Shown here piece by piece: positions 29,345-30,981 of a stretch of 30,981 nucleotides of DNA. Position numbers and translations under genes: made by a program. The DNA comes from Escherichia coli. Lineage in GTDB: Bacteria > Pseudomonadota > Gammaproteobacteria > Enterobacterales > Enterobacteriaceae. Each line of letters opens with the position of its first letter. Position 1 is the first letter of the stretch. Below the pieces are notes generated by a model that saw only the letters and a list, made by a program, of their open reading frames with translations, was not told the DNA's origin and did no database searches. The stretch lies in assembly GCF_003334355.1 (NCBI RefSeq), contig NZ_QOWP01000038.1. One strand, 5' to 3'.

Positions 29345-29851
29345 ATGATGCCAGTTAGCCGTAATCTCTGCATTTTCTTAAACGTTGGTTTGGGAGAAGG
29401 CTCCGCGCTACCGGTGGGCGTACCGGTTCCGTGGCCTCTCCCGAACCCACCACAGGGATGGCTTAAATATAACGGTGCGCCCTTCGATAAAAACATATAT
29501 CCGAAATTAGGTGCAGTTTATCCGGCTGGCGTATTACCCGACTTACGCGGCGAGTTTATTCGCGGCTGGGATGATGGGCGGGGAGTGGATGCAGGGAGAA
29601 TCATATTAGCTCAGCAGGGTGATGCTATTAGAAATATTACAGGTTTCGTGAGTGGTTCTTCTGGCGTTTCGTTTGATAGTTTTTCTGGTGCTTTTTACGA
29701 TTCGGGGGTAAGAAGCGGCAGAAGGCCTGAGAGTACGACTATTGTTGATATGAATGATGATTTTGCTTTTGATGCTTCCCGGGTAGTGCCAACTGCAAAT
29801 GAAAATCGCCCGCGAAATCTTGCATTCAATTACATAGTTCGTGCAGCTTAA
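29345..29851 (+). CDS. Alternative tail-fibre C-terminal cassette (N-terminally truncated, probably silent in this orientation)
   Basis: 168 aa ORF with tail-fibre motifs LPVGVPVPWPLP, YPAGVLPDLRGEFIRGWDDGRGVDAGR and C-terminal VVPTANENRPRNLAFNYIVRAA; residues from 29480 are encoded by the inverted repeat shared with the minus-strand fibre gene. Confidence 0.7.
   Translation: MMPVSRNLCIFLNVGLGEGSALPVGVPVPWPLPNPPQGWLKYNGAPFDKNIYPKLGAVYPAGVLPDLRGEFIRGWDDGRGVDAGRIILAQQGDAIRNITGFVSGSSGVSFDSFSGAFYDSGVRSGRRPESTTIVDMNDDFAFDASRVVPTANENRPRNLAFNYIVRAA
29373..29398. other. Candidate hix/gix-like recombination crossover site
   Basis: TTTTCTTAAACG-TT-GGTTTGGGAGAA: imperfect 12-2-12 dyad; right half GGTTTGGGAGAA matches the gix right half GGTTTTGGATAA in 10 of 12 positions (from memory); sits next to the invertase start. 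Confidence 0.3.
29480..29637 (+). repeat. Inverted repeat, left copy (tail-fibre switch)
   Basis: 29480-29637 is the reverse complement of 30981-30824 with one mismatch seen (29566 C vs partner 30895); compared by eye. Homology breaks at 29638 where the two tips diverge. Confidence 0.85.
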
Positions 29852-29904
29852 ATGAAAAGCCGTCTTAATGGGGTCAGTCCATAATGACGGCTTAATCATC
29901 TTTA

Positions 29905-30510
29905 TCAAATTGAGGGCGGCTCAGGTAGTATCGCAGTTGGAAAATCTGAGGGTTTAATGGCATTCAGCGCATCAATATAATCAAGCCACAGGTTAAACTT
30001 GCTTGTTTCTGTTTCGCTCATTCGATTGAGTTGTAACTTTGAAGGCCAGTTATTTTTATTAATGACCGCATTAGCCTCATCAATCAGCGCCTGAATTTTC
30101 ATTTCAAATGCCTGAACGTCAGCAACTCTTTTTGCATCGATATCCGTTATCCACTCAGTACCATTCCAGACATCAAATTGAGTTTCTGGCGCAATTGTGG
30201 TGGTATTTTCTGGAAGCTCTCCTAAAAACCGAACAGTGATTTTCTCCCCTGTATCAGTTTTATAAACTTCTGCTTCACGGTGATCTTCAACATACTCCCA
30301 GCCGTTCAGATCTTCATTACGACAAATAGCAAAGCCAGCCTTGAATTTGCCGGGTTTATCAGTACAGGAATGGGCAGGCACGCCCACGCCTTCTGCAAGA
30401 TATTCAACGGTTGATGACAGGTACTCACGGGTGATGGCATCATAGTTATAAACAGTGATTTCACCTGCCGATGATGCGATCCCATATGTATTCAAAATAG
30501 CTTCACTCAT
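29905..30510 (-). CDS. Tail fibre assembly protein (Tfa / Mu U / P2 G family chaperone)
   Basis: 201 aa from ATG at 30510 (MSEAILNTYGIASSAGEITVYNYDAITREYL...FLGELPENTTTIAPETQFDVWNGTEWITD...) with AGGA RBS; resembles e14 TfaE / Mu U as recalled. Confidence 0.85.
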   Translation of the reverse strand: MSEAILNTYGIASSAGEITVYNYDAITREYLSSTVEYLAEGVGVPAHSCTDKPGKFKAGFAICRNEDLNGWEYVEDHREAEVYKTDTGEKITVRFLGELPENTTTIAPETQFDVWNGTEWITDIDAKRVADVQAFEMKIQALIDEANAVINKNNWPSKLQLNRMSETETSKFNLWLDYIDALNAIKPSDFPTAILPEPPSI

Positions 30511-30582
30511 TCTCTTATCCTTCGTGCTGGGGCAAGATTCTACTATACTGAGCGTTCTCACTTATTCTTGATATTGATGTTG

Positions 30583-30981
30583 TTACATAGCCCTCACAAT
30601 GTAATTAAATGACAGGTTACGTGGGCGGTTTTCATTTGCAGTTGGAACCATCAAGGAAGCATCAAAAAAAAGCGCAGCAAATCTATCGTCTGTCGCTCCA
30701 ATAGCAACATCTACTTGAGCGGCATACGATCCAAACTCACCGTCAGTGCGGAAAGCACCTGTTGCCCCTGCATTAAAAAGCCTTGCTGATGTAGCTGCAT
30801 TTCGTCCCTGAACCCCACCAGTGATATTTCTAATAGCATCACCCTGCTGAGCTAATATGATTCTCCCTGCATCCACTCCCCGCCCATCATCCCAACCGCG
30901 AATAAACTCGCCGCGTAAGTCGGGTAATACGCCAGCCGGATAAACTGCACCTAATTTCGGATATATGTTTTTATCGAAGGG
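30583..30981 (-). CDS. Tail fibre protein, C-terminal portion (partial; 5' end beyond window)
   Basis: Minus-strand frame open from the window end to the stop at 30583; encodes ...YPAGVLPDLRGEFIRGWDDGRGVDAGRIILAQQGDAIRNITG then a divergent 70 aa tip ending VPTANENRPRNLSFNYIVRAM; followed by the tfa gene. Confidence 0.85.
   Translation of the reverse strand, partial: PFDKNIYPKLGAVYPAGVLPDLRGEFIRGWDDGRGVDAGRIILAQQGDAIRNITGGVQGRNAATSARLFNAGATGAFRTDGEFGSYAAQVDVAIGATDDRFAALFFDASLMVPTANENRPRNLSFNYIVRAM
30824..30981 (-). repeat. Inverted repeat, right copy (tail-fibre switch), truncated by window end
   Basis: Reverse complement of 29480-29637; runs to the last base of the window, so its true length is unknown. 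Confidence 0.85.

Follow-up and report, generated by a model that had tools for sequence, protein, structure and literature searches.

The stretch of Escherichia coli DNA considered here (contig NZ_QOWP01000038.1 of assembly GCF_003334355.1; 30,981 nucleotides, in the following called the window) ends on its right side in the tail module of a P2-like prophage, the genes of which are read on the minus strand. At this end lies an invertible tail-fibre switch, which carries two alternative fibre tips and one gene, tfa, for a tail-fibre assembly chaperone. An earlier note on this DNA had drawn attention to the unequal numbers of tips and chaperone genes and had offered three options, namely that the tip on the plus strand folds without a dedicated chaperone, that it uses the shared one in trans, or that the cassette is degenerate. 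Loci which were retrieved for comparison are designated by L numbers. One of them, L001, the E. coli chromosome DXMF6-3R, is 100% identical to the window across the searched stretch 28600-30981 and continues past the end of the window.

Genes of the tail-fibre switch

A serine DNA invertase of the Gin/Cin/Pin type with 197 amino acids (aa) is encoded at 28724-29317 on the minus strand. It matched the solved Gin invertase 3UJ3 of the PDB over residues 1-182 (E = 1.2e-94), and its precomputed Pfam matches were Resolvase and HTH_7. The single tfa gene (29905-30510, minus strand; 201 aa) codes for a tail-fibre assembly chaperone with Caudo_TAP_N (PF28596, precomputed) and Caudo_TAP domains (PF02413 at 4.2e-20, residues 78-199), which also matched PHROG 105 at 8e-74 and showed 50% identity to the Tfa protein of phage HK97. 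With its conserved C-terminal Caudo_TAP domain and variable N-terminal domain the predicted protein fits the Caudo_TAP assembly proteins. NCBIfam assigned no family to Tfa or to the fibre protein H, and a sequence search of the PDB with Tfa yielded no relative, Mu Tfa included.

In the orientation present in the window, the fibre gene H has tip A as its 3' end (30583-30981, minus strand), which is cut by the window end. The full H gene was taken from L001 (7984-9303; window-equivalent 30583-31902) and codes for 439 aa. Tip B is a silent cassette on the plus strand (29387-29851), comprising 154 aa when counted from the crossover site, and is found as an in-frame fusion to H in genomes with the flipped segment.

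The earlier note had placed tfa, the invertase and both tips correctly, and all its coordinates and distances were confirmed, including the 53 nucleotides (nt) from the stop codon of tipB to that of tfa and the 27 nt between the ATG codons of the invertase and tipB. Its two tip genes have to be read differently. The supposed tip on the minus strand (30583-30876) does end at 30583, but it is only the end of H running off the window and not a separate open reading frame (ORF); the ORF on the plus strand (29345-29851) is positioned correctly, but represents a silent 3' cassette starting at the crossover site rather than a stand-alone gene. A truncated tip, expressed divergently from the ATG at 29345, is not supported: its first 14 codons do not belong to the invertible segment, four Gs directly adjoin this ATG with an improper Shine-Dalgarno spacing, and no promoter-like site was found near it. 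The count of two alternative tips and one tfa was borne out by tblastn searches with four different Tfa proteins, which covered the window, L001 and L099, i.e., about 39 kb of identical prophage from replication gene A to ogr, and which detected one tfa-like region; a second tfa-like gene pairing with the plus-strand tip was not present there.

Inversion sites and natural isomers

Two crossover sites of 26 base pairs (bp), inverted to each other and with the central dinucleotide TT common to both, delimit the segment. The left site, TTTTCTTAAACG TT GGTTTGGGAGAA, is situated at 29373-29398 (plus strand); the right site, TTCTCGCATACC TT GGTTTGGGAGAA, is located beyond the window at window-equivalent 31063-31088 and its sequence was taken from L001. 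Both agree with the Din-family consensus quoted in PMC4134206. The sites occupy the outer ends of an inverted repeat which brackets the segment and which, with 272 nt and 94% matched positions, is far above chance expectation. Its left arm (29373-29644) codes for the collar part common to both tips, and its right arm (30817-30981) is cut by the window end; in L001 the two arms are found at 6774-7045 and 8218-8489.

Five genomic loci (L004, L005, L007, L009 and L016) contain the opposite orientation. Their outer half-sites are swapped, H is fused in frame to tip B, resulting in a protein of 430 aa, and tfa is antisense to H. Both H::tipA (439 aa) and H::tipB (430 aa) are intact, and both orientations exist among genomes. 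On the basis of the invertase, the sites and the in-frame fusion with its isomers, the locus is a Din-family (Gin/Cin/Pin/Hin/Min) invertible tail-fibre switch. The Gin/Cin-family invertase recombines the two 26-bp sites and flips about 1.7 kb, and by this flip the last 154-163 residues of H are replaced with tip A or tip B; these steps are established by the sequence together with the natural isomers.

A terminator-like hairpin with a T-run was noticed at 29337-29356 (minus strand), between the crossover site and the start codon of the invertase, which leaves almost no space for an invertase promoter outside the segment. In a Salmonella contig (AALCBT010000021.1; L070, 5108-8233) a cassette with a B-type tip is joined to the half-site TTATCAAAAACC, which we take to be a hix half-site, and is followed by genes for a 190-aa invertase, a flagellin and a Flag1_repress protein, presumably hin, fljB and fljA. 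This suggests that a prophage crossover site had recombined with the flagellar hix site, or else a misassembly.

Candidate late promoter and terminator of tfa

Between the stop codon of tip A and tfa lies a non-coding gap of 72 bp. Ogr, the late-gene activator of P2, recognizes the pattern TGT-N12-ACA. A perfect dyad of this type at 30581-30598 (minus strand), overlapping the tip A stop codon, is a candidate Ogr activator site, and 33 nt downstream of it follows TATAGT (30542-30547, minus strand) as candidate -10 box of a proposed promoter, P_tfa. In the annotated P2 genome, activator site and -10 box are 34 nt apart in pO and 35 nt apart in pF, and the centres of the sites are at -55.5 (pO/pP) and -57.5 (pF) with respect to the mapped starts. 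By this rule transcription of tfa would start near 30534, with the centre of the dyad about 55 nt upstream. A scan for sigma-70 promoters revealed no -35/-10 pair upstream of tfa. The dyad, the -10 box and the lack of a good -35 box fit, as far as can be judged from sequence, the pattern of the Ogr/Delta-dependent late promoters of P2. TATAGT matches five of the six positions of the -10 consensus and is closer to it than the P2 late boxes GAAAAT and GAAACT. An activator is encoded by the same phage; the product of ogr (22063-22281, minus strand; 72 aa) shows 100% identity to P2 Ogr.

Downstream of tfa, an intrinsic terminator is predicted at 29850-29893 (minus strand), consisting of an 8-bp G+C-rich stem followed by TTTTCATTT, with a fold energy of -19.1 kcal/mol. 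A hairpin with a T-run after tfa was present in every lineage, for example in L022, and the version in L060, from Trabulsiella, is of unrelated sequence. Compared with L022 and L023, the E. coli cassette has about 16 additional nt in the terminator loop (29865-29885); the stem and T-run are the same.

With respect to conservation of the putative promoter, only two cases carry weight. In Trabulsiella L060, TGT-N12-ACA and TATAGT are 34 nt apart and separated by a spacer of unrelated sequence; in cassettes of the L061 type the dyad is contained in the 3' remnant of a tip which is no longer coding. This remnant, ending with ETRPRNLSFNYVVRAM and a stop, was found between the linked tip and tfa in L061 (3814-3928) and also in L062-L066 and L078. 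Its retention suggests that linked tips were replaced upstream of the promoter-bearing stretch. The Trabulsiella locus has two further peculiarities, an extra stretch of about 150 nt in the tfa leader (4824-4975), which contains a hairpin with a 12-bp stem (ACCGCCATTTTT...AAAAATGGCGGT), and a gene for an N6/N4 DNA methyltransferase (7360-8112) between the invertase and the sheath gene.

Canonical relatives (L006, L019 and about 30 loci from IMG/VR) were inspected for the same features. Their tfa starts at the tip stop codon or overlaps it, and none has a gap or a dyad at this place. Where such relatives possess a second tfa, the two genes overlap convergently and neither gap nor terminator is present. 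Taken together, the gap, dyad, -10 box and terminator make the tfa of the window look like a self-contained late unit which moves with the segment. A search for the dyad as a DNA pattern returned only the two known loci in viral contigs, and in metagenomes one true relative among 25 matches, the others being due to chance. Real late promoters of P2, with a CCA right half-site, are missed by a strict TGT-N12-ACA search, which is therefore limited in sensitivity as well as in specificity.

Distribution of the single-tfa cassette

The exact Tfa protein was found in 182 blocks of the assembly collection. Its cluster at 90% identity includes E. coli, Salmonella and Citrobacter, and a relative with 70% identity occurs in Trabulsiella. 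In these four genera the cassettes belong to P2-like prophages, apart from the lambdoid case described below. A survey of homologous switches for a second tfa, as the earlier note had proposed, showed a single tfa beside a Din invertase at every retrieved locus of this Tfa clade, with two to four tips each. Two tips are present in the window type, L022, L062 and L068, three in L023, L060, L061-L065 (L062 being counted in both groups), L069 and L078, and four in L067. The clade loci contain at least 11 different tip types, and a single three-tip cassette is represented by different isomers in L061, L063, L064 and L065. The position of tfa was counted in 27 non-redundant records: it was directly behind the fused H::tip in 16 of these, antisense to H::tip in 10, and in the remaining one co-oriented with H::tip, with a silent tip between them.

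An identical two-tip cassette was detected in two P2-like backbones and in one lambdoid prophage at dusA. The latter (L008, 3791-6592; E. coli ARL09/232, record 2.627 Mb) contains the same tipB-tfa-tipA arrangement, fused to a side-fibre gene of 322 aa and adjoining a different invertase. In phage SKA5 the backbone of the L008 prophage is found together with a cassette that has two tfa genes.

Only 6 of 5426 complete E. coli genomes contain the cassette, which is thus rare in this species. Among deposited phage genomes no Tfa with more than 60% identity was found, and a scan of genome contigs with Tfa gave only three distant loci, none with this layout. A gap upstream of tfa was also seen in L058, which has neither an invertase nor a dyad. 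Degenerate copies form a minority; in one of them, L003, tfa is broken. The single-tfa arrangement would thus appear not to be a one-off decayed cassette, and degeneration is unlikely.

Another layout with one tfa was observed at L040 (2829-6150) and also at L041, L042, L046, L049, L050 and L052. There, a collar tip is coupled to an HK97-like tfa, and the other alternative is an unrelated tip of 115 aa (...FSWRVYCAPV), which is not followed by a Caudo_TAP gene; a small ORF runs antisense into the 3' end of tfa.

Architecture of the tips

All tips have about 85 N-terminal residues in common, which are encoded in the inverted repeat, and all end in the C-terminal motif RPRN(L/I/V)(A/S)FNYIVRA. 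They differ only in an inserted patch of 45-85 residues between these two parts. In an alignment with T4 gp37 (2XGF) the tips match its collar domain and its terminal strand, and the variable patch takes the place of the needle.

Tfa proteins are modular; a variable N-terminal domain binds the fibre, and a conserved helical C-terminal domain drives trimerization (PMC9608196, summarizing work on Mu). A tip of phage SKA5, 71% identical to tip B, possesses its own translationally coupled Tfa of the same family, which argues that B-type tips are normally clients of Tfa. For the cassette in the window we infer that one Tfa serves every tip, and the shared protein would then dock on the invariant collar. 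A precedent for the action of one chaperone on different fibres is known, since the Tfa of lambda can replace gp38 of T4.

Proposed mechanism and alternatives

We propose that the single tfa in the middle of the segment, although permanently linked to tip A, provides a Tfa which serves all tips. The common collar scaffold and the identical C-terminal strand would allow one Tfa to fit tips that differ only in the patch. The gene would be an autonomous late transcription unit, preceded by the Ogr-type site with its -10 box and followed by the intrinsic terminator, and in the lytic cycle Tfa would be produced in either orientation of the segment. Taken as a whole, i.e., an inversion switch, one Tfa for all tips and an autonomous tfa unit of the Ogr-dependent late type, this explanation appears probable to us, if only by a little. 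Its most far-reaching version, according to which tfa is a tip-agnostic and orientation-independent module with its own Ogr-activated promoter and terminator, forming the hub of a two-to-four-tip shufflon and docking on the invariant collar, is put forward tentatively, as a possibility somewhat short of probable.

Several observations weigh against this explanation. P_tfa is proposed from a match to a motif. The dyad is the sole TGT-N12-ACA in 14.4 kb of L001, but at least one such dyad occurred in 196 of 200 shuffles, so that it is not significant alone, and part of it (TTGTG) is constrained by Ile-Val codons. Among clade members with at least 90% identity, the conservation of these two elements, dyad and -10 box, was dropped as evidence, since it is explained by the overall identity. 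The terminator looks one-directional, and therefore read-through from H::tip could collide with transcription of tfa in the antisense states. The same cassette is present in a lambdoid prophage that should lack Ogr. Locus L071, from the P1-like plasmid pKY1497_2, has one tfa for several tips and no gap; an internal promoter is thus not the only solution, and other routes must exist. From the L040 type it follows that tips free of a chaperone are possible in principle. Finally, frameshifts in tipB occur in L002 and L010, where the cassette is otherwise intact, and in L003, a degenerate copy, and the variable part of tipB differs between E. coli and Citrobacter/Salmonella by 1-5 substitutions only, which are too few for an estimate of selection, so that dN/dS is uninformative.

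Some of these points would agree with a degenerate cassette, in which a second tfa behind tipB had been deleted. Particles set free by lysogens in the tipB orientation would then have unassembled fibres, and the arrangement would persist only because selection on prophages is weak. The canonical relatives with their two convergent tfa genes, the frameshifts in tipB, the broken tfa of L003 and the missing signal of selection on the variable part of tipB could all be understood in this manner. Yet cassettes with a single tfa occur in four genera and three phage backbones, at Tfa identities of 70-100%, with two to four intact tips and at least 11 tip types overall; the invertase is intact and active, since isomers in all orientations are seen; the cassette has moved as a unit between unrelated backbones; and the gap, the promoter-like elements and the terminator are particular to the single-tfa layout. 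Degeneration, one of the options in the earlier note, is thus very unlikely, and the suspicion that tipB might be a pseudogene can be narrowed to the three records with frameshifts; in several genomes tipB is fused in frame to H. It is also quite unlikely that only the linked tip needs Tfa, and that tip B and other unlinked tips fold without a dedicated chaperone or make use of host chaperones or the Tfa of other prophages. Relatives of the L040 type, where the tip without a following Caudo_TAP gene is paired with a collar tip and its coupled tfa, would suit this idea, as would the many tfa genes in E. coli genomes and the substitution of T4 gp38 by lambda Tfa. Linked and unlinked tips, however, agree in their fold and in their C-terminal motif, the B-like tip of SKA5 carries its own coupled Tfa, and the tfa genes of cryptic prophages are not expected to be expressed late.

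A further alternative accepts that Tfa is shared, but assumes another route of expression, such as a constitutive sigma-70 start at TATAGT without Ogr, a promoter inside the coding region of tip A, or transcription from the side of the invertase. The -10 box, which is nearer to the consensus than the P2 late boxes, the occurrence of the cassette in a lambdoid prophage and the P1-like four-tip cassette without a gap would all be compatible with such a route. It is considered unlikely, because upstream of tfa no sigma-70 -35/-10 pair was found, a terminator-like hairpin stands between the crossover site and the invertase gene, and the spacing from dyad to -10 box equals that of P2 late promoters in two diverged lineages. 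Use of the shared chaperone in trans is then the best supported of the three options which the earlier note had offered, and with the autonomous late unit proposed here a plausible, orientation-independent way of expression would be available for it.

Implications

According to the textbook model, which is derived from Mu and P1, each alternative tip has its own chaperone, and in fibre engineering a tip is usually transferred along with the chaperone that belongs to it. If the proposed mechanism is true, Tfa should recognize the conserved collar and not the receptor-binding patch, and shufflons with many tips could grow by the addition of bare tip cassettes. Receptor-binding patches could then be swapped or added without a matching chaperone, so that the cassette would be a natural plug-and-play platform for host range. 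It would also be a ready-made chassis on which P2-like phages, P4 cosmid delivery systems or tailocins could be given new targets. In addition, the locus offers a testable example of a candidate late promoter which is placed inside an invertible segment.

Neighbouring genes

Beyond the invertase, the tail module continues on the minus strand with the genes for the sheath FI (27474-28664), the tube FII (26943-27461), E/E' (26459-26886) and the tape measure T (24019-26466). The sheath operon has a late promoter, P_F, with an activator site (TGT-N12-CCA) at 28738-28755 on the minus strand, which is near-identical to the annotated pF region of P2 and overlaps the last codons of the invertase gene. 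Invertase and cassette therefore occupy exactly the gap between G and FI, in which P2 itself carries Z/fun.

Between ogr and the host gene at 20172-21092, which we take to be fieF, an ORF of 219 aa (21282-21941, minus strand) matched PD-T4-10_B of PADLOC (E = 7e-35) and had no match among the PHROG families. Probably this ORF is a piece of anti-phage cargo at the end of the prophage. In the same prophage of DXMF6-3R, beyond the window (L099, 2490-5084), a gene of the SIR2 family is situated between replication gene A and the portal gene and is probably another defence cargo gene. This interval is where P2 carries tin and old.

Comparison with known systems

The G segment of Mu (Gin) and the C segment of P1 (Cin) resemble the switch in the window by an invertase of the same family, 26-bp sites, alternative in-frame 3' ends of the fibre gene and a gene of the Caudo_TAP type inside the segment. 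Theirs are mirror-image arrangements, Sv-U and Sv'-U', with one chaperone for each tip. In contrast, the cassette in the window has one tfa between the tips, a non-coding gap before it and a terminator after it, and the 272-nt repeats encode a common collar. An assembly gene of its own behind each tip was not found in the window, L001, L099 or any relative of the clade. Mirror-image cassettes are also known from P2-like and lambdoid prophages of E. coli (the P segment of e14; Phi1, Phi2 and Phi4 of EC958, in PMC4134206; L006; SKA5). With these the locus shares the position between H and the sheath gene, the invertase and type of site, and tips of the collar type. They differ in having two tfa genes, each starting at the stop codon of its own tip and overlapping the other convergently, with neither a promoter-like gap nor a terminator.

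The fibre genes of T4 (gp37/gp38) and of lambda and HK97 (Stf-Tfa) are related at the protein level, since the tips align to the gp37 collar and the terminal ...NIAFNYIVR strand, and Tfa has half of its residues in common with that of HK97. Those are fixed fibre genes with a coupled chaperone, in which no switching by inversion takes place.

With the P2 late promoters pO/pP, pV and pF the candidate P_tfa has in common the TGT-N12-(A/C)CA site about 55 nt upstream of the start, the absence of a usable -35 box, and 33-35 nt between site and -10 box. It would differ by its location inside an invertible segment, by serving a single gene, and by a -10 box which is much nearer to the consensus. A description of an internal late promoter in such a segment was not found in the literature, older primary papers being outside that search.

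The Min-type regions of p15B and P1-like plasmids (pKY1497_2, L071) contain several tips of the collar family, the same type of site and one tfa. Min-like or shufflon-like systems have more than two sites and more than two tips; the cassette in the window has two of each, while its relatives with the same tfa and three or four tips, which are listed above, work like the Min-type regions of p15B. L071 possesses four collar-type tips and one tfa, the product of which is 46% identical to Tfa of the window. There, the start of tfa lies at the stop codon of the tip before it, a gap and an Ogr-type site are lacking, and the backbone and the control of late genes are different. The use of one tfa for many tips is thus older and more widespread than the proposed arrangement with an internal promoter.

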